From positions 4,820-68,819 of the forward strand of contig JBBDIZ010000029.1 in NCBI GenBank assembly GCA_040880145.1: a DNA stretch of 64,000 nucleotides, read 5' to 3'. The notes under the pieces were generated by a model that was not told the DNA's origin, searched no databases, and saw only the letters and a list, made by a program, of their open reading frames with translations. Positions within the stretch are counted from its first letter, which is position 1; each line of letters opens with the position of its first letter. The translations under genes and the position numbers were made by a program. The DNA comes from Simkaniaceae bacterium. Lineage in GTDB: Bacteria; Chlamydiota; Chlamydiia; Chlamydiales; JAJFMI01. This document shows positions 23,122-47,142 of this stretch, one piece after another.

Positions 23122-23181
23122 AAGACAACCTCCTTTCATTCTATCTAGATGCAAGAAAGGTACCAAAAAGTGAAAAATTGC

Positions 23182-23213
23182 AAAAAAAAAGGCTTCCCTA
23201 TAGAGGGGAAGCC
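23182..23213 (-). terminator. rho-independent terminator downstream of the MORN lipoprotein gene
   Basis: Minus strand: 8-bp stem GGCTTCCC/GGGAAGCC (23191-23198 with 23206-23213), a 7-nt loop, then a U9 run (A9 at 23182-23190 on the plus strand). Begins 18 nt after the stop at 23231. Confidence 0.8.
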
Positions 23214-23230
23214 CTAAAAGACAGAGAAAA

Positions 23231-24238
23231 TTATTGAGCGTGGCGGTAGGCGCGCTCATTCATGATGGCGATGGCGCGGTCGCGGTCTATAAGTTCATCA
23301 AATTTTGATTTTGTAACGCGTTCGTTAGCAAAATACCATTCTTTTTTGGTCATGCCATCTAGGTAAACGATGGAAAGGCCGTGGCGGAGACCGTCTGACC
23401 AATTACACTCTTCTACGAGTTTACTTCCATCGATATAGTAGCGTTCCACCCCATTTTTTCGGCCTTCTTTAAAGGAGAGCTCGAGATATTTTACTCCATT
23501 TTGAAAGTAGGAAGCGGGACCGCTGAGGTAGCCATTTTGGTACGTTTCAATAGAGACAGGCTCGCCTGTTGATCCAAAGACTCGTTTTTCTCCGTGAATG
23601 GTACCGCCGGCAAAGGGTATTGAAGAATGAAGGGTGCCATTTGGATGGAAAGATTCACGAAGAGCAATGTGTCCTTCGTCGATAATTTCTTTGCCCCAGA
23701 GCCAACCATCGCTATCTCGGATGATGCGTTCGCCATATCCTTTTGTAACTCTCGATTCGCTCTCGTTGTGGAGTGTAAAGTAATCACCTTCGATGAGCTC
23801 ATCATCGAGGTATTCTTCAATACAGCGAGGAGGGCCGCTTTTGTACCAGCAGGTTACTTTTACATGGTCAGGCCCAAAGAAAAGCTCCTCTTTTTCGGGA
23901 AGTCCTTTCACATCGTAGTTTACTTTTCGAACAAGAACGCCCCCTTCAAAGATATTGAGAGATTCTAAAGTTTCACTGTGAGGGTAGGTGTAGGTCGTGG
24001 AACCGTGTAAAATACCATCTTCATAAGTAGAAGTGATCGTAACCCCATTTCTCATCGTAGTGATTACCTGACCGGGGTAGTGATTGCCTTGCCACTCTTC
24101 TTGTGATACGTCATATCCATATTTGTGAATGAATCTTTGGGATACAACTTCTTGGCTGCGATCTTGTGCTGAATAATCATGGCAACCTGCTAAGCCCATA
24201 GCTAAAAGAGCCATGAGTTTATACGCTTTTTTCTTCAT
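23231..24238 (-). CDS. MORN-repeat (YwqK-like) lipoprotein
   Basis: Lipobox LAMGLAGC after MKKKAYKLMALLA. Repeated G-x-(H/L)-G...Y...G units, for example DGILHGSTTYTY and DGLRHGLSIVYLDG. Confidence 0.7.
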   Translation of the reverse strand: MKKKAYKLMALLAMGLAGCHDYSAQDRSQEVVSQRFIHKYGYDVSQEEWQGNHYPGQVITTMRNGVTITSTYEDGILHGSTTYTYPHSETLESLNIFEGGVLVRKVNYDVKGLPEKEELFFGPDHVKVTCWYKSGPPRCIEEYLDDELIEGDYFTLHNESESRVTKGYGERIIRDSDGWLWGKEIIDEGHIALRESFHPNGTLHSSIPFAGGTIHGEKRVFGSTGEPVSIETYQNGYLSGPASYFQNGVKYLELSFKEGRKNGVERYYIDGSKLVEECNWSDGLRHGLSIVYLDGMTKKEWYFANERVTKSKFDELIDRDRAIAIMNERAYRHAQ

Positions 24239-24310
24239 AGCGACCTCTATTTTTTTGTTCACTACCATGCCTGTATTTAATCTAATTTTCAACTGAAAAG
24301 TTTCTTGCGG

Positions 24311-24348
24311 CTATACCGAAACGACTTTTTGAAGTCGTTTCGGTATAG
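24311..24348. repeat. repeat family A, complete palindrome (perfect 17-bp stem, 4-nt loop)
   Basis: CTATACCGAAACGACTT-TTTG-AAGTCGTTTCGGTATAG. Begins 12 nt downstream of the pheT stop on the minus strand. Confidence 0.95.
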
Positions 24349-24360
24349 CATTGATTTTTG

Positions 24361-26736
24361 TTAAATTTCAAGTAAAGCAGTGACTTTGCTCTGAAGTTTG
24401 TTTTGCAGTTTTTCAACTGTTTCCGATTTGATTGTTTCATTTTCTTTTCGGTAATAAAAGCGTAAAGTAACGTTTTTTTCATTTTTAGAGAGCTTTTCGC
24501 CTTCATAGATTCCTATGAGCTCATAATTTGTGAGAAGGGGGGATTGGCAAGTTTTAATGGCATCATAAAGGGCGCTAAGAGGCAGCTCTTTTTTGAGGGT
24601 AAGGGTCCAGTCTCGAGACGTTCCGGGATAAAGGGGGAGAGGGGTCATTTGCTTGACGCCGGATTGAAGGCGAAGGAGCTCTTCTAACTCAACTTGGGCA
24701 AAGTAGATGGGAGTTTTGATTTCAGTATGCTTGGGATGGACTTGACCTGCGACTGCGACAAGGGTGTTATGAATATAAACTTCAGCCTGGATGTTAGGGT
24801 GAAAGCTGTCGAGGCGGGAGGGTCGAAAAGAGACCTTTTCCAAGTTCAGTGAAGTAAAAAGATTTTCGAGATGACCTTTTAGATCAAAGAAATCAACTGA
24901 ACAAGAGGGGTCTTGAAAGTGAAAAGGTTTCTTCATTCCGGTTAAGGATAGGGCAAGAACGTGAGGCTCTTCAATTTTACCATCGACTCTGAAATGGATT
25001 CTTCCCACTTCGAATGCAGCGATGTTGGAGGTTTGGTGATCAAAATTCAGCTGAATCGCTTGAAGGTGTCCAGGTAGAAGAGAGGTTCGAAGAATCGATT
25101 GATCGAGGCTGCTGGGGTGAAGAACTCGAAGAAGATGGGTCTCATCGAGATCTTTTTCAATGGCAAGAGAAGCCATCTTAGGGCTAATTAAATCGCATGT
25201 GAGAAATTCAGTAAGGCCGCTTTTAAGAAGTTCCGTTCGGATTTTTCTTTCGAATAAAAATAGAGGAGAGTGGGGGATGGTGGAAAGGTGAACTCTAGGA
25301 GAGCTTTTGGGTATGTGATTATAACCGTAGATCCGTGCGACCTCTTCAATGAGATCGATTTCAGCTGAGATATCATTTCGGAAAGTCGGAACCGTTACGG
25401 AAAGTTCATCATCGAGATGTTTTTTGACGCAAAAGGAAAGCCGCTTCAAGATTTCTGAGGTTTCATTTAAGCTTATGGAAATTCCAAGAAGTTTATTTAA
25501 ACGTTTTAGGCGTAAGTTTAATTTTTTGCCCTTTTGTTTTTTGATTCCCTTTTCAGCGGGCCCTCCTAGGGGTTTTGCTAAGGCGCATTCTATGAGTAAT
25601 TGCGAGGCGCGACTGAGAGCGAATGCACTCATATTAGAGTCGATGCCCTTCTCAAAACGAGCAGAGGACTCGGTTCGCAATTTCAATTTTTTCATGGAGG
25701 CTCGAACTTCTATGGGATGGAATGAGGCGGCCTCAAGAAGAATCGAGGTAGTTTTATCATTGACGGCACTTTTCCCGCCGCCCATGACCCCGGCAACTGC
25801 AATAGGCGTTTCACTTGAGAAAATAAGAAGCGTCTCTTTTGGAATTTCATATTCAATTCCGTCGAGAAGGGTCATATTCAGTTTTTTCGTATTTTTTTGG
25901 ATCTTTATCGACTGATTCTCAAGAGCATTGAGATCAAAAGCATGCATCGGTTGACCCAGTTCCAACATGACGTAATTTGTGATATCGACCACGTTGTTAA
26001 TCGGTCGAATATTGGAAGCTAAAAGTCTTTTTTCAAGCCACTCGGGAGAGGGACCGATCGCGATGTTTTCAAATGCTTGGGCGCGGTAGTAGGGAGAAGC
26101 GATTTCATCTTCAATCTCGATTGAAATGGGAGAGGGGGTCTTTGCGGACAAGGGGTTAACTTCTCGGATATGAAGAGGGAGGTTTAAAAGAGCAGAGAGC
26201 TCGCGCGCGATGCCCAAATAGCTCATGCAGTGGCCGAGATTCGGTGTCAATGAAATATCGAAAAGGGTGTCAGCTAAAACCTCTTTCAGTTCCATTCCGA
26301 TGGGCCTTCCCTCATCAAATTCCATGATCCCATCGACAGAAGAGGGAAGGCCAAGCTCTTCGGCTCCACAGAGCATGCCGAAGGATTCAACGCCGCGAAG
26401 TTTACATTTTTTTATGGTAAAAACTTTATTCTTATCATCTGTTAATTGGCTACCAACTTTAGCGAAAGCGGTTATAAGGCCTTTTCGGCAGTTTGGAGCG
26501 CCGCAGACAACCTGAAAGGTCTCTTTTTGATCACTCACTGTTGCAATGCAGAGTTTTTCGGCTTGGGGGTGTGGTTGCGTTTCGATGACCTTTGCAAAAA
26601 CAACGCCTTCAAAAGAAAAGGGTGTTTTTTCGATTTTGTCCACTTCAAGACCTGCCAAGGTCAACGCGTCAGCAATTTCTTCAGGGGAAAGGGATAAAGG
26701 TAAAAACTCTTTGAGCCAATTGAGAGATACTTTCAT
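24361..26736 (-). CDS. pheT: phenylalanine--tRNA ligase beta subunit
   Basis: 791 aa. MKVSLNWLKEF start, tRNA-binding domain, B3/4, B5 and a FDX-ACB-like C-terminus. Confidence 0.95.
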   Translation of the reverse strand: MKVSLNWLKEFLPLSLSPEEIADALTLAGLEVDKIEKTPFSFEGVVFAKVIETQPHPQAEKLCIATVSDQKETFQVVCGAPNCRKGLITAFAKVGSQLTDDKNKVFTIKKCKLRGVESFGMLCGAEELGLPSSVDGIMEFDEGRPIGMELKEVLADTLFDISLTPNLGHCMSYLGIARELSALLNLPLHIREVNPLSAKTPSPISIEIEDEIASPYYRAQAFENIAIGPSPEWLEKRLLASNIRPINNVVDITNYVMLELGQPMHAFDLNALENQSIKIQKNTKKLNMTLLDGIEYEIPKETLLIFSSETPIAVAGVMGGGKSAVNDKTTSILLEAASFHPIEVRASMKKLKLRTESSARFEKGIDSNMSAFALSRASQLLIECALAKPLGGPAEKGIKKQKGKKLNLRLKRLNKLLGISISLNETSEILKRLSFCVKKHLDDELSVTVPTFRNDISAEIDLIEEVARIYGYNHIPKSSPRVHLSTIPHSPLFLFERKIRTELLKSGLTEFLTCDLISPKMASLAIEKDLDETHLLRVLHPSSLDQSILRTSLLPGHLQAIQLNFDHQTSNIAAFEVGRIHFRVDGKIEEPHVLALSLTGMKKPFHFQDPSCSVDFFDLKGHLENLFTSLNLEKVSFRPSRLDSFHPNIQAEVYIHNTLVAVAGQVHPKHTEIKTPIYFAQVELEELLRLQSGVKQMTPLPLYPGTSRDWTLTLKKELPLSALYDAIKTCQSPLLTNYELIGIYEGEKLSKNEKNVTLRFYYRKENETIKSETVEKLQNKLQSKVTALLEI

Positions 26737-26841: not shown

Positions 26842-28041
26842 ATGGGTGAAGATTCATATTGGGTAAAAAAAATTCGGAAGCTCACACAAATATTGATTGT
26901 GAGCGGTTCTTTAAATGTTGCCTTTTTGGCTACGTTAATTTATTTTGCTCTTCCTAAAAAAGAAATTTTCATTAAATCGACATCTTATCGCACTCCGCCT
27001 TTGACGACAAGTCATCTTAAAGTGCTGCAAAATTATTTTGAGACAAGTTATGAAAGCCTTTTACAGGAGCTTGAAAATGAAGAGCAGATTTTTGATGGAT
27101 TTTCCTATCGAGATTTAGCCTTAAGCTGTTTGGTGAGTTTTCATGACTTTGATATTGAGCGCGCGCTTCCAGGGTTTCCTCTTCAAAAGCGGGAGATGGC
27201 TTATCTCAACAAATCGGGGGGTGAGCAGGTTGAGCTTACGCTCTTTCCAGGATTAAAAAAAGAGCATTTTGTTGCTATTTCTGACTTTGCTTCAAAAGAG
27301 AGATGGCCTCTTACAACAAAGGGGCTTTTTTTTGAATTGCAGTCTTTAAAACAACCCCCTTCCTCACTTGTCAGCTCGTTTCTATTAACGAAGGAGTTTC
27401 ATGCCATTGAAATTCTCTTTAATCATCTGCCTGCACCTGTTTCGAAAGAGATTCTGCTTTCTCTTTTATTGCAAGGAAGCTGGGATCGTTTGGCCTCCTT
27501 TGTCAAGCGGCACCAAGATCTCGATGCGCTTTCACCTCTTGAAAGACGCGAGTTTTTGCTCGATTACGCTGGGGGCGGCTCTACTTATGCCGCGACACTT
27601 TTAGTGGCAACAGATCGGGATTTTGTCCAACATGAACTCGATGATGAACGGCTTGTTTCAGTGATGTCAAATCTACAAATTCTAACGGAGGAGACAGAGA
27701 GCCTCGTCAAAGAGCTTCTCTATAGTTTGCGCTCAGACAAGGTGCGTACTTTAGCCGGGGTTAAGCTTTACGCCCTTTTAGGGGAGCGCCCTCCTGAGCC
27801 CTACGATCACTTTACAACTTTAAAGCGCTTTTTACCTGAATTTTTCGATGAGATCACCCCCCAAATGGTCAATGATCAGCCCTCTCACTCTTCAAAGCGT
27901 TATCGTATTAAGGAGGGAGACACCCTCTGGCACATTTCTCGAGATTACAAGGTCTCTGTCGATGAAATATTGAAAGCCAATAACCTCAAGTCGGCATACC
28001 TCCTCCCTGTTGGGAAAGAGCTCATAATACCCAATTCTTGA
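26842..28041 (+). CDS. membrane-anchored LysM-domain protein
   Basis: 399 aa. N-terminal TM segment. C-terminal LysM YRIKEGDTLWHISRDYKVSVDEILKANNLKSAYLLPVGKELIIP. The stop codon lies inside a family-A repeat. Confidence 0.75.
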   Translation: MGEDSYWVKKIRKLTQILIVSGSLNVAFLATLIYFALPKKEIFIKSTSYRTPPLTTSHLKVLQNYFETSYESLLQELENEEQIFDGFSYRDLALSCLVSFHDFDIERALPGFPLQKREMAYLNKSGGEQVELTLFPGLKKEHFVAISDFASKERWPLTTKGLFFELQSLKQPPSSLVSSFLLTKEFHAIEILFNHLPAPVSKEILLSLLLQGSWDRLASFVKRHQDLDALSPLERREFLLDYAGGGSTYAATLLVATDRDFVQHELDDERLVSVMSNLQILTEETESLVKELLYSLRSDKVRTLAGVKLYALLGERPPEPYDHFTTLKRFLPEFFDEITPQMVNDQPSHSSKRYRIKEGDTLWHISRDYKVSVDEILKANNLKSAYLLPVGKELIIPNS

Positions 28042-28056
28042 AGTTGTTTCGGTATA
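28038..28056 (+). repeat. repeat family A copy, perfect consensus
   Basis: TTGAAGTTGTTTCGGTATA. The upstream flank CCCAATTC is shared with the copy at 13931. Its TGA is the LysM gene stop. Confidence 0.95.
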
Positions 28057-29624: not shown

Positions 29625-29643
29625 ATGAAGTTGTTTCGGTATA
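29625..29643 (+). repeat. repeat family A copy (ATGAAGTTGTTTCGGTATA), 1 mismatch
   Basis: Lies between yidD and structured element copy 1. Followed by TAAGTC, as is the copy at 28038. Confidence 0.9.
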
Positions 29644-44571: not shown

Positions 44572-44936
44572 ATTTTTTCTCCTTAGTTGATGACTAACCT
44601 TAGGTTTTTGTAGTCCCAAGGGAATTATAAGTCAAAGCAAAATGCAATGTTCCCCATTATACGTAAGTTGGCAGCAAAATGTCTAGTGCTCTACTGGATT
44701 GATTTTCAGGGGAATGCAAAAAAGTTAAGAATTGACGAAAAACACGTTAATAAATTATCAGTTTTTTAATTAAATTGGAGTGAATATGATCAAAGAGAGA
44801 TATGGGTTTAGCGGGCAAATAATAGCTGATAATTAACAATTTATAGAAGAAATTGAATCATTTTTTTCCTGTGTTAAACAAGGGGAGGTTGGGAGGCTTT
44901 ATCTCACATCAAAGTTTTCTGAAAATCTTGGATTTT

Positions 44937-44986
44937 TTATGACTGCCCGCGAAAAAACCCATGGTTTTAATCGTGGGCAGTCATAA
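44937..44986. repeat. repeat family B inverted pair forming a long hairpin
   Basis: TTATGACTGCCCGCGA (44937-44952) pairs with TCGTGGGCAGTCATAA (44971-44986): 16 bp including one G-U. The 18-nt spacer is itself palindromic (AAAACC-CAT-GGTTTT). Confidence 0.85.
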
Positions 44987-45021
44987 ATCTGTAGAAATTA
45001 AGTTGTATTTTAGGGCCTCAC

Positions 45022-47142
45022 ATGGCAACGTTATTTTCCATGAGCAAGCAATTAGCCCCTCTAAAAAAGCGATCTTTTTCGCGATTCGATACTGAAAAGC
45101 TAAAAAGCGCAATCTCAGCGTTAAAACAGAAAGAGAGCCTCGAAGAAAAGGAACAATTTTTTGATCCTCTTTTTTCAGAGTTTTTTCACGATCACCTGGC
45201 TCTGGCCTTTTGTATAAACCACCTGCCGATAAAAGCGCGGCTTTTGCTCAAATCCTTACTCTTGATCGATCAAAAGCATCTTCTTTCTACAAGTTCTTAT
45301 GAAGGAGACATTGAAGAAGCACTTATAAAGCTCGTTAAGCAGCTGGAGCCGATCGAAAAATTTTATGAAGACCAGGGGGGGGTGATCGGTTACCAAGTCA
45401 AAGTTTATGAAATGATACGGGACCGGAGTTCCTTTGAGGAAAAAGCTCATTATCATCCGCCTCCTTTTCAGGATATCTCTTTCTTAAATCCAAAAACAGA
45501 GGAGTTGATCAATGAAGGGCTTTTGCACATGCCGGAGCTTGCTGAAATTTATCCTGTTGGAGGTGCAGCAGATCGATTAGGACTCGTTGAGAAGGACTCT
45601 GGAGAAAACTTGCCTGCAGCCAGACTTGATTTTCTCGAATCTAATCTCTTAGAAAGGTTGATACGCGACTTAGTGGCGCGTGAATATCTTTATTATAAAA
45701 AATTTGGCAAGCAATTAATGACGCCTGTTGTTCTGATGACCTCAAAAGTTAAAGACGGCGATCATCATGTCCGAGAAATTTGTGAGAAAAATCATTGGTT
45801 TAATCGACCAAAAACAAGTTTCAAAATTTTTTGTCAGCCGCTTATCCCAACTTTTGATATCGAGGGGAAGTGGTGTTTAAAAGCCCCCTTTTCGCTTCTT
45901 TTAAAGCCCGGAGGCCATGGCGTTCTTTGGCGTTTAGCAGAACTTAAAGGCGTCTATCAATTTTTAAGCGATCAAGGACGAAAAAAGGCTTTAATCCGAC
46001 AAATAAACAATCCCATTGCAGGGGTTGATTATGGACTTTTAGCCTTTACAGGGTATGGATTTAAGCATAATCGCGTTTTTGGGTTTGCCTCATGTCCAAG
46101 ACGAGTTAGAGCCAATGAGGGAATGAATGTCACTTGCGAGAAAAAATTAGGGTCTGACTCAGAATTTGCCCTAACAAATGTAGAATATTGTGAATTTTCC
46201 TATCATGGAATCGAGGACAAACCTTTAGAGCAAGGGGGAGAGTTTTCGAAATTTCCTTCCAATACCAATATTCTTTTTGCAGATTTAGAGGCTCTAAAAA
46301 AAGCGCAAAAAAAGAATCCTTTTCCGGGAAGTATTCTGAACTTTCGATCGGATCAGATTTTTGATGGCCTGAAATATGTAGATGAAAAGGTTGCAAGAAT
46401 TGAAACAACCATGCAAAACATTGCCGATAGCTTTGTTTCAAGAAGTAAAAAAAAGTCCGATCTTCTCTCTTATCTAACTTTTAATCAAAGACGAAAAACC
46501 ATTTCAGTTACAAAGAGAAAAATGACAAAGAAAGATTTTTTTGAAACGCCTCAAAGCTGTCTTTATGATTTTTTACAAAATGGCTATGATCTACTTAAAG
46601 ACCATTGTGGTTTTATCCTCCCGCCAAGACAAAGCCAGGAAGATTTTATCGAAAACGGCCCCGATTTTCTCTTGAATTATCATCCGGCACTGGGTCCTCT
46701 CTACACCTCGATTGCAAAAAAAATAAGCAAGGGAGAGATTAAAAAAGGGAGTGAAATGGTTTTAGAAATAGCCGAACTATCCATGCAAAATTTTCAATTG
46801 GACGGAAGCTTTGTTGTTCTTTGCCGTTGCCCTCTTGGCCATCTCGATCAAGAGCAAAAGCTCCATTTTTCAGAGCGCGCCCCCCGATGCACTTTAAAAA
46901 ATGTGACCGTTAAGAACAAGGGATATAGCAAGCTTGAACAAAAAACACTACTGGACTCTCCTCATCCTCGAAAAGAGTCTTTAACCCTCATTCTCAATGA
47001 GAACAGCCATTTTATTGCAAGCGATCTTCACTTCACAGAACCTGCAATCATAGAGGTTCCCCCTAATACAATTGTAAGAGCCCTGAAAAAAAACGACAAA
47101 CTTAATTTTCAAACTACGAAGCTATCCAAAGTCCTTGGTTGA
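45022..47142 (+). CDS. UDPGP-family (UTP--sugar-1-phosphate uridylyltransferase-like) protein
   Basis: 706 aa. IYPVGGAADRLGL and LLLKPGGHGVLW resemble the nucleotide-binding loop and the P-x-GHG of the UDPGP family. The rest is unassigned. Confidence 0.45.
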   Translation: MATLFSMSKQLAPLKKRSFSRFDTEKLKSAISALKQKESLEEKEQFFDPLFSEFFHDHLALAFCINHLPIKARLLLKSLLLIDQKHLLSTSSYEGDIEEALIKLVKQLEPIEKFYEDQGGVIGYQVKVYEMIRDRSSFEEKAHYHPPPFQDISFLNPKTEELINEGLLHMPELAEIYPVGGAADRLGLVEKDSGENLPAARLDFLESNLLERLIRDLVAREYLYYKKFGKQLMTPVVLMTSKVKDGDHHVREICEKNHWFNRPKTSFKIFCQPLIPTFDIEGKWCLKAPFSLLLKPGGHGVLWRLAELKGVYQFLSDQGRKKALIRQINNPIAGVDYGLLAFTGYGFKHNRVFGFASCPRRVRANEGMNVTCEKKLGSDSEFALTNVEYCEFSYHGIEDKPLEQGGEFSKFPSNTNILFADLEALKKAQKKNPFPGSILNFRSDQIFDGLKYVDEKVARIETTMQNIADSFVSRSKKKSDLLSYLTFNQRRKTISVTKRKMTKKDFFETPQSCLYDFLQNGYDLLKDHCGFILPPRQSQEDFIENGPDFLLNYHPALGPLYTSIAKKISKGEIKKGSEMVLEIAELSMQNFQLDGSFVVLCRCPLGHLDQEQKLHFSERAPRCTLKNVTVKNKGYSKLEQKTLLDSPHPRKESLTLILNENSHFIASDLHFTEPAIIEVPPNTIVRALKKNDKLNFQTTKLSKVLG

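Follow-up and report, generated by a model that had tools for sequence, protein, structure and literature searches.

The hairpin located just past pheT in the window (the whole stretch of Simkaniaceae DNA that was analysed, 64,000 nt in length) was found to be built from two ends of an interspersed repeat, referred to here as family A. This family is probably a small, non-coding, palindromic repeat of MITE/REP-like type, spread over several lineages of environmental Chlamydiae. The best reading of the hairpin is that of an ordinary repeat remnant, neither a regulatory signal specific to pheT nor an unusual terminator.

The palindrome between pheT and the MORN-type gene

The hairpin and its surroundings were characterized, in the order of transcription of the flanking genes, by the following features:

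24361-26736, minus strand: pheT, phenylalanyl-tRNA synthetase beta chain, 791 aa, with all five PheT Pfam domains and a TAA stop
24310-24349, unstranded: pheT hairpin palindrome with 18-bp arms and a 4-nt centre (inverted-repeat search, folding, nhmmer match to the 165-bp family profile)
23231-24238, minus strand: gene of a MORN-repeat-like lipoprotein, with the lipobox LAGC and a GAGG Shine-Dalgarno sequence before the ATG at 24238
23180-23215, minus strand: canonical intrinsic terminator, a 10-bp G+C-rich stem followed by T9 (terminator scan)

The sequence CTATACCGAAACGACTT-TTTG-AAGTCGTTTCGGTATAG at positions 24311-24348 was exactly as quoted in an earlier note on this DNA, and the stem was even 1 bp longer on each side (18 bp instead of 17). 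According to the inverted-repeat finder, 24310-24327 and 24332-24349 were paired at 18 of 18 positions and formed a perfect palindrome around the loop TTTG (24328-24331). The repeat element proper, TATACC...GGTATA, corresponded to the 36 bp from 24312 to 24347. The folding-energy check that the note had proposed was carried out. On the gene strand, the RNA centroid was the hairpin alone, at -28.9 kcal/mol; in a 101-nt RNA context, the value was -30.4 versus -12.4 ± 2.9 kcal/mol for shuffled sequences (z = -6.2), and none of the 200 shuffles equalled it. As DNA, the hairpin folded at -20 kcal/mol (z = -11.7). Moreover, the 17-nt arm was matched nine times in the window with up to three mismatches, versus 0.13 expected matches, and nine was reached in none of 100 shuffles. 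From the fold relative to shuffles and the number of arm copies relative to expectation, the hairpin is real and far beyond chance. The description of the hairpin as two family-A arms was also borne out.

ORFs and the domain scan placed the hairpin between pheT and the MORN-type lipoprotein gene, on their strand, as had been noted. The pheT stop was separated by 12 nt (24349-24360) from the 17-bp stem, again as reported, and by 13 nt from the first base of the element; the MORN-type gene started 71 nt downstream of the palindrome. The product of this downstream gene begins with MKKKAYKLMALLAMGLAGC, a lipoprotein signal with the lipobox LAGC, and its MORN_2 match was sub-threshold (27.9 bits versus a cut-off of 29.6). 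Since no promoter-like site was listed by the scan for the minus-strand stretch from the hairpin to the MORN ATG, co-transcription of pheT and the MORN gene is the likeliest arrangement.

On the sense strand, the stem was followed by CCGCAAGAAACUUUUCAG, which contains no U-tract. The pheT-MORN unit was closed 1.1 kb downstream of the hairpin by the canonical terminator, AGGGCTTCCCC-TCTAT-AGGGAAGCCT followed by T9, located 16 nt past the MORN stop. This structure, used for comparison in the earlier note (at 23182-23213), is a genuine terminator, lying directly after the MORN stop and carrying T9. We therefore agree with the note that the hairpin does not qualify as a textbook intrinsic terminator. 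The tail on the plus strand, ATTGATTTTTGTT, was listed as terminator-like in the lenient scan. The hairpin resembles a Rho-independent terminator in being a stable stem-loop directly past a stop codon; it differs in having 8 G-C pairs out of 18 and no U-run on the transcribed strand.

As the top plus-strand entry in that lenient scan, the hairpin might be taken for a stand-alone palindrome outside any family, arisen by chance as an inverted repeat or serving pheT alone as a terminator. However, for both flanking genes the plus strand is the antisense strand, the arm matched eight other places in the window and hundreds elsewhere, and no shuffle reached the observed fold or copy number. We regard this explanation as refuted.

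Family-A copies and the anatomy of the full element

The conserved unit around the nine window matches exceeded the arm and consisted of TATACCGAAAYRACTTCAAGAAT, followed by a variable, partly complementary tail. All copies in the window were intergenic or located at gene ends, and they occupied six loci in 64 kb. Besides the pheT hairpin, the copies were as follows, the mini copy and the solo end at 18446-18521 lying together in one spacer:

13861-13949, unstranded: 89-bp two-ended member between convergent genes (inverted-repeat search, family profile, folding)
18446-18475, minus strand: asymmetric mini copy of 30 bp with two ends, TATACCGAAATGACTTCAAAAATCGGTATA, in the spacer between the divergent rpsD and Fic genes (arm matches, folding)
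18500-18521, minus strand: solo family-A end, TATACCGAAACAACTTCAAGAA, 24 nt from the mini copy and in the same orientation (arm matches)
28032-28056, minus strand: solo end that overlaps the LysM ORF at its 3' end (arm matches)
29626-29643, minus strand: solo end cut short at 18 nt and located about 200 nt upstream of a tRNA gene (arm matches)
33456-33476, plus strand: solo end at the end of recO, of the ACGAC sub-type to which the hairpin arms also belong (arm matches)

Some of these copies contributed to coding sequences. The 89-bp member, whose arms of about 33 nt were 88% complementary, contained the TGA stop of the bactofilin-like ORF 12702-13868, which was made by a C-to-T change within TATACCGA. 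The LysM ORF (26842-28041) obtained two additional codons (N-S) and its TGA stop from the repeat end, the homologue ending in ...ELIIP, and the last codons and TAG stop of recO (33455-34024, minus strand) came from the repeat end at 33456.

Two further features of the window were observed that do not belong to family A. A 52-bp palindrome at 44936-44987, with 26-nt arms that were 85% complementary and had no spacer, is unrelated to the family and sits about 35 nt upstream of a UGP3-like/UDPGP ORF (45022-47142). In addition, two adjacent ORFs at 35158-37876 overlapped by about 140 nt, both with an MptE-like (6-hydroxymethylpterin diphosphokinase-like) domain.

Outside the window, the full element extended over about 165 bp from TATACCGAAAC to GTTTCGGTATA, formed a near-perfect palindrome and was present in more than 20 copies in one MAG. 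In the CRAIB_MAG59, "Acidobacteria" and RIFCSPLOWO2 MAGs, ends were arranged as inverted pairs 164-166 bp apart. Ten copies of about 165 bp, from three MAGs, could be aligned end to end from TATACCGAAAC to GTTTCGGTATA, with unrelated flanks. The termini TATACCGAAA.../...TTTCGGTATA did not vary among the aligned copies (10 of 10 and 15 of 15), and the boundaries were sharp. For one copy of about 165 bp, folding gave one long hairpin with -73.8 kcal/mol (z = -18.5).

Copies in CRAIB_MAG59 had the same differences between their left and right arms, such as ACAACTTC versus ACAATTTC and GAGC-GCGCCAAAG-TCCCGGGG versus GAGCTGCGCGAAAGCTCCCGCGG, and were found in both orientations. In one MAG (JANWJE01), 212 kb of retrieved loci contained 55 arms, which had left/right differences in common and occurred in both orientations. 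Copies within a MAG thus descend from a common template. Across MAGs, compensatory changes were observed at 23 of 70 predicted pairs, for example ACAAC/GTTGT, ATGAC/GTCAT and ACGAC/GTCGT in the ends, and the palindrome was kept over the whole 165 bp. Among metagenome copies of 162-177 bp, some exhibited quite different interiors behind the common first 25-30 nt, corresponding to sub-families.

Two-ended copies measured 177, 165, 138, 94, 89, 77, 71, 70, 63, 59, 49, 42 or 36 bp, and both termini were always kept. The sizes 138, 77, 70, 59, 49 and 42 bp came from metagenomes and 94, 89, 71, 63 and 36 bp from genome loci or the window. The 42-bp copy (L121:1189-1230), TATACCGAAACGACTTCAAAATTTTGAAGTCATTTCGGTATA, from an unrelated metagenome, exhibited the same centre-less, collapsed design as the pheT hairpin. 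Asymmetric mini copies of 30-36 bp were recurrent and combined one end of about 25 nt with the last 6-11 nt of the other. Two-ended copies from 30 to 177 bp were nearly all stem and had no coding capacity. Solo ends broke off at various points between nucleotides 18 and 35; they were as numerous as paired ends and equally well conserved.

Read on the minus strand, the pheT hairpin comprised nucleotides 1-20 of the end, TATACCGAAACGACTTCAAA, followed by the complement of nucleotides 1-16, so that in 24312-24347 one end was represented by its outermost 16 nt and the other by its outermost 20 nt, head to head. It had been suggested that this hairpin might be the full-length form of the family. 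That suggestion has to be given up: the full form is about 165 bp, and the 89-bp copy at 13861-13949 is an intermediate. In view of the graded two-ended series down to 36 bp, in which all copies have both termini, the sequences place the pheT hairpin as the shortest symmetric member of an apparent deletion series, and not as its parent form.

In one locus of a Chlamydiales MAG (JBLFWS01; L082:4843-4890), two members abutted tail to tail with a common terminal TATA (...AAGTCGTTTCGGTATACACAAGCAACTTCAAGAAT...), and one copy appears to have been inserted at the end of the other.

Distribution across genomes and possible insertion

To describe the distribution of the family, we scanned 596 Gb of genome sequence, with one genome per species, for the 18-nt pattern TATACCGAAAYRACTTCA taken from the arm, which yielded at least 103 stretches. 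Among the matches listed, 63 of 103 stretches belonged to nine MAGs, labelled as Chlamydiae, Parachlamydiaceae, Parachlamydiales, Waddliaceae or Chlamydiales (seven MAGs) and as Acidobacteria (one MAG). The numbers of stretches, again among the matches listed, were 32 in Parachlamydiaceae CRAIB_MAG59, 11 in Chlamydiales 3300053785_128, 8 in "Acidobacteria" BOG_genome_mining.12, 7 in Chlamydiae RIFCSPLOWO2_12_FULL_49_12, 3 in each of two Waddliaceae MAGs, 2 in Parachlamydiales SW_7 and 1 in Chlamydiae BWOrgControl. The remaining listed stretches were mostly single matches with unrelated downstream sequence, which fits the approximately 70 chance matches estimated for the whole collection. A metagenome scan with a 19-nt version of the pattern yielded 66 stretches.

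The Acidobacteria-labelled MAG (CAJCHM01; L029, L042, L048, L052, L084, L086, L088 and L094) contained bona fide members, some of them full copies of about 165 bp. A family-like end was also observed in one Verrucomicrobia-labelled MAG (L062 = JAFEGI01) and in one "uncultured bacterium" MAG (L098). Either these carriers with non-chlamydial labels are chlamydial bins that were mislabelled or contaminated, or the family has spread horizontally. In CRAIB_MAG59, many copies were located less than about 150 bp from the end of a contig or block (L015:105-127, L031:274, L049:4-26, L058:128 and 6913, L085:83, L096:97), and the repeat may break short-read assemblies.

The conserved 23-nt end of the repeat, TATACCGAAACAACTTCAAGAAT, was invariant across MAGs in its first 10 nt and nearly so in the next 13 or so. 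By comparison, the DNA identity between genes of the window and the few loci of other MAGs that overlapped them was only about 68-72%, so that conservation of the repeat end far exceeds that of the host genomes. Such conservation, together with the persistence of solo ends, might be expected if the 23-nt end were a recognition site bound by a conserved chlamydial protein, with the palindrome as a double site; its role would be that of an operator, a recombination site or a DNA-uptake-type signal. In Neisseria and Haemophilus, uptake sequences occur as paired inverted copies near gene ends, and family A resembles them in this respect. However, the spacing between ends varied from 4 to about 130 nt across copies, leaving no fixed dimer geometry, and for this reason the proposal of a protein-binding palindrome acting as an operator is disfavoured. 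Moreover, the ends always bounded a longer conserved unit with sharp edges, copies were almost excluded from coding sequences, and their neighbours (pheT, rpsD, recO, LysM, bactofilin-like, tRNA) had no functional theme. Conserved ends with differing interiors are also expected from a shared transposase. Overall, a host-factor recognition site seems very improbable, and we retain the reading of the family as a palindromic interspersed repeat.

Several searches were performed for traces of mobility. Pairs of inverted ends 400-4000 bp apart, as in an autonomous element, were absent from the approximately 850 kb of retrieved loci, a small sample, with both strict and relaxed patterns. Beside or inside 22 solo ends, we found no transposase-like ORF, only housekeeping-like or chance ORFs, and no transposase domain was detected in the 19 window proteins scanned. 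The 44 two-ended copies exhibited no direct repeat outside the invariant TATA, within which a TA duplication is inseparable unless an empty site is at hand; their -1 and +1 bases were complementary in 12 copies and identical in 8, which is the chance level. A BLAST search of joined flanks against all retrieved loci gave no empty site, the matches being only to the copy itself or to a repeat in the flank. As these searches revealed neither an autonomous element, nor a target-site duplication, nor an empty site in a close relative, we infer transposition from the anatomy of the copies.

The comparison with the homologous spacer of related genomes, recommended in the earlier note, was also carried out. 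A metagenome scan with PheT retrieved no relatives, and the nearest PheT in a protein search was only 52% identical. This nearest syntenic relative (L105) kept the order LysM-pheT-MORN, and the element was absent: its 293-bp pheT-MORN spacer had no family member, and no family match was found in the whole 8.4-kb locus. A second relative that was fetched was not syntenic. In L105, the pheT stop lay inside a small 6-bp hairpin, AGCCGT-AGAAAA-ACGGCT (L105:5360-5390); the 3' end of pheT is thus structured there too, by an unrelated sequence.

Other origins were considered and rejected. A CTAG target with TA duplication, as in IS630-like elements, had been prompted by the C...G flanks of five of the nine window arms; it was rejected for the family as a whole, in which the -1 base was mostly T and flank complementarity was at chance level. 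Insertion into the TA of a stop codon was not a general rule, since copies beside genuine genes were mostly 1-17 nt past an intact stop. A plasmid origin found no blastn match in PLSDB. The arrangement of the hairpin, with inner parts abutting and outer ends facing outward, is the opposite of that of an IS circle junction. Finally, an integron attC site was discarded, the termini not fitting the R'/R'' cores and the neighbours being housekeeping genes in mixed orientation.

The most likely event is the insertion of a family member into the short spacer between pheT and the MORN gene, presumably catalysed by a mobilising enzyme acting on family A. Long palindromes are prone to centre loss; the pheT copy would have lost the centre of a longer palindrome after insertion, or would already have been minimal when it inserted. 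It would persist in the spacer because it is harmless there, and its presence needs no function.

Gene ends, known repeat families and significance

Among 59 placeable copies, 56 were located outside ORFs and 3 inside; gene calls were crude (longest ORFs), so this and the following position counts are indicative only. The distribution of copies over convergent, divergent and tandem spacers was 9:15:32, versus a background of 71:66:244. In tandem spacers, 15 copies were closer to the stop of the upstream gene and 16 to the start of the downstream gene. In the chlamydial loci L003-L104 and the window, ends facing the 3' end of a gene were within 15 nt of the stop codon in 22 of 42 cases, versus 85 of 912 (9%) random intergenic positions, whereas ends facing the 5' end of a gene exhibited no such closeness to start codons (4 of 57). 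Beside real genes, the gap was typically 1-17 nt, with an intact stop codon, and the pheT copy fits this pattern. A general preference of the family for gene 3' ends was not supported by spacer class or by tandem spacers, though a subset of copies is very near stops. The closeness to stop codons could reflect either insertion tolerance in a compact genome or selection for 3' structure.

These positions bear on the possibility that the hairpin is an exapted RNA element of the pheT 3' end, retained as a transcribed stem-loop like E. coli REP/BIME or Correia repeats. Such a stem-loop would shield the upstream mRNA from 3' exonucleases, offer a cleavage site to RNase III, or terminate transcription leakily and so uncouple the MORN gene from pheT. 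In favour of this possibility, the RNA stem is highly stable and stands 12 nt past the pheT stop, and no promoter-like site was listed between it and the MORN gene; the family lies close to stops and not to starts, and its palindrome is kept over its whole length by compensatory changes. In addition, RNase III cleavage at Correia ends has been reported (PMC10969869, PMC2649163). On the other hand, divergent (promoter) spacers contained copies as the background predicts (15 of 56 versus 17%), tandem spacers showed no preference between stop and start, and numerous solo ends that are unable to form a hairpin were equally well conserved. The sense strand, moreover, lacks a U-run in a genome that uses canonical terminators, the syntenic relative does not have the element, and closeness to stops is also explicable by tolerated insertion sites in a compact genome. 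We therefore consider exaptation, in any of these roles, unlikely. A stability or processing role of the RNA hairpin, as proposed in the earlier note, is plausible as a side-effect of repeat insertion, and the habit of lying near stop codons gives it some weight. The pheT-MORN transcript would fold an 18-bp perfect stem at the hairpin, which could slow the 3'-to-5' decay of pheT mRNA or attract RNase III; either effect might lower the expression of MORN relative to pheT.

In order to relate family A to known elements, we compared it with several classes of bacterial repeats. Rfam 15 gave no family at the gathering score or at E < 0.01, only tRNAs reaching the gathering score in the window; for the hairpin and a 165-bp copy, the best sub-threshold matches were miRNA-precursor or sRNA models, with 12-23 bits versus cut-offs of 50 to 440. 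Literature searches with the end sequence returned unrelated primers only, and when Chlamydiae were combined with palindromic or intergenic repeats, the only papers retrieved were one on CRISPR and one on an Orientia genome. Chlamydiae are also absent from a 2024 review of prokaryotic MITEs. Within the searchable literature, the repeat family is apparently undescribed.

The closest kind is the palindromic bacterial MITE, such as Correia/NEMIS and ERIC, the collapsed forms being REP-looking. Family A has the size (less than about 300-500 bp), the sharp terminal inverted repeats and the dispersed related copies of a MITE, and no coding sequence. Like Correia/NEMIS of Neisseria and ERIC/IRU of enterobacteria, it is small, non-coding and mostly intergenic, has inverted ends beginning with TATA and internally deleted size variants, and has no identified cognate transposase. 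Some accepted MITE families, including Correia and ERIC, likewise have no autonomous insertion sequence. Co-transcription with neighbouring genes as a long hairpin would be a further likeness. It differs from Correia and ERIC in its phylum (Chlamydiae) and in that the whole body, and not the ends only, is kept palindromic; a TA duplication, established for Correia, is in family A indistinguishable from the terminal TATA. To our knowledge, there is no sequence likeness between family A and Correia or ERIC beyond the TATA start. Correia ends are substrates of RNase III, and ERIC copies at gene 3' ends alter mRNA decay (PMC10969869, PMC2649163).

The collapsed 30-42-bp forms have the size and shape of REP/REPIN elements, which are mobilised by RAYT (Y1/HUH) transposases; moreover, inverted pairs make longer hairpins, singlets are common, and copies are extragenic and often just past stop codons. 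The two REP super-families are defined by a GTAG or CGTC head at one end of a palindrome of 20-40 bp (PMC3733652). The unit of family A, by contrast, ends with TATACC/GGTATA and has no GTAG or CGTC head, and its conserved 165-bp full form is longer than typical REPINs. The palindromic elements of Rickettsia and Wolbachia (RPE/WPE) are repeats of 100-150 bp. Family A is similar to them in being palindromic, in having obligate intracellular hosts and in that some copies supply codons, here the C-terminal codons or stops of LysM, RecO and the bactofilin-like ORF. RPEs, however, characteristically lie in frame inside ORFs, whereas the copies of family A rarely did (3 of 59), and their coding overlap was confined to the last few codons.

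The maintenance of the palindrome over its whole length by compensatory changes and the closeness to stop codons both exceed the prediction of a purely neutral transposon model. On this basis, and given the near-invariant 23-nt end in Simkaniaceae, Parachlamydiaceae and Waddliaceae MAGs and the compensatory 165-nt hairpin, family A might be a Chlamydiae-wide structured element under selection, with the pheT hairpin as its minimal functional module. It would then have a conserved host-encoded partner, such as a domesticated transposase, or undergo RNase III-type processing that yields small RNAs; alternatively, it would serve to form 3' ends or as an insulating signal in organisms where canonical terminators are few. 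We consider selection of this kind, whichever the partner, to be quite improbable.

Taken as a repeat remnant, the pheT hairpin removes from genome annotation the false lead of a pheT-specific signal. Rickettsia, Wolbachia, Coxiella and Neisseria are known to have interspersed palindromic repeats, and none such has been reported for Chlamydiae in the searchable literature. The family would explain contig breaks in MAG assemblies, several copies being at contig ends, and it is a candidate source of 3'-UTR structure and of altered protein C-termini in compact genomes. Its whole-length compensatory palindrome and its closeness to stop codons are two mildly unusual properties. A family common to Simkaniaceae-, Parachlamydiaceae- and Waddliaceae-labelled MAGs would mark past genetic exchange or long-term repeat activity among amoeba-associated chlamydiae.
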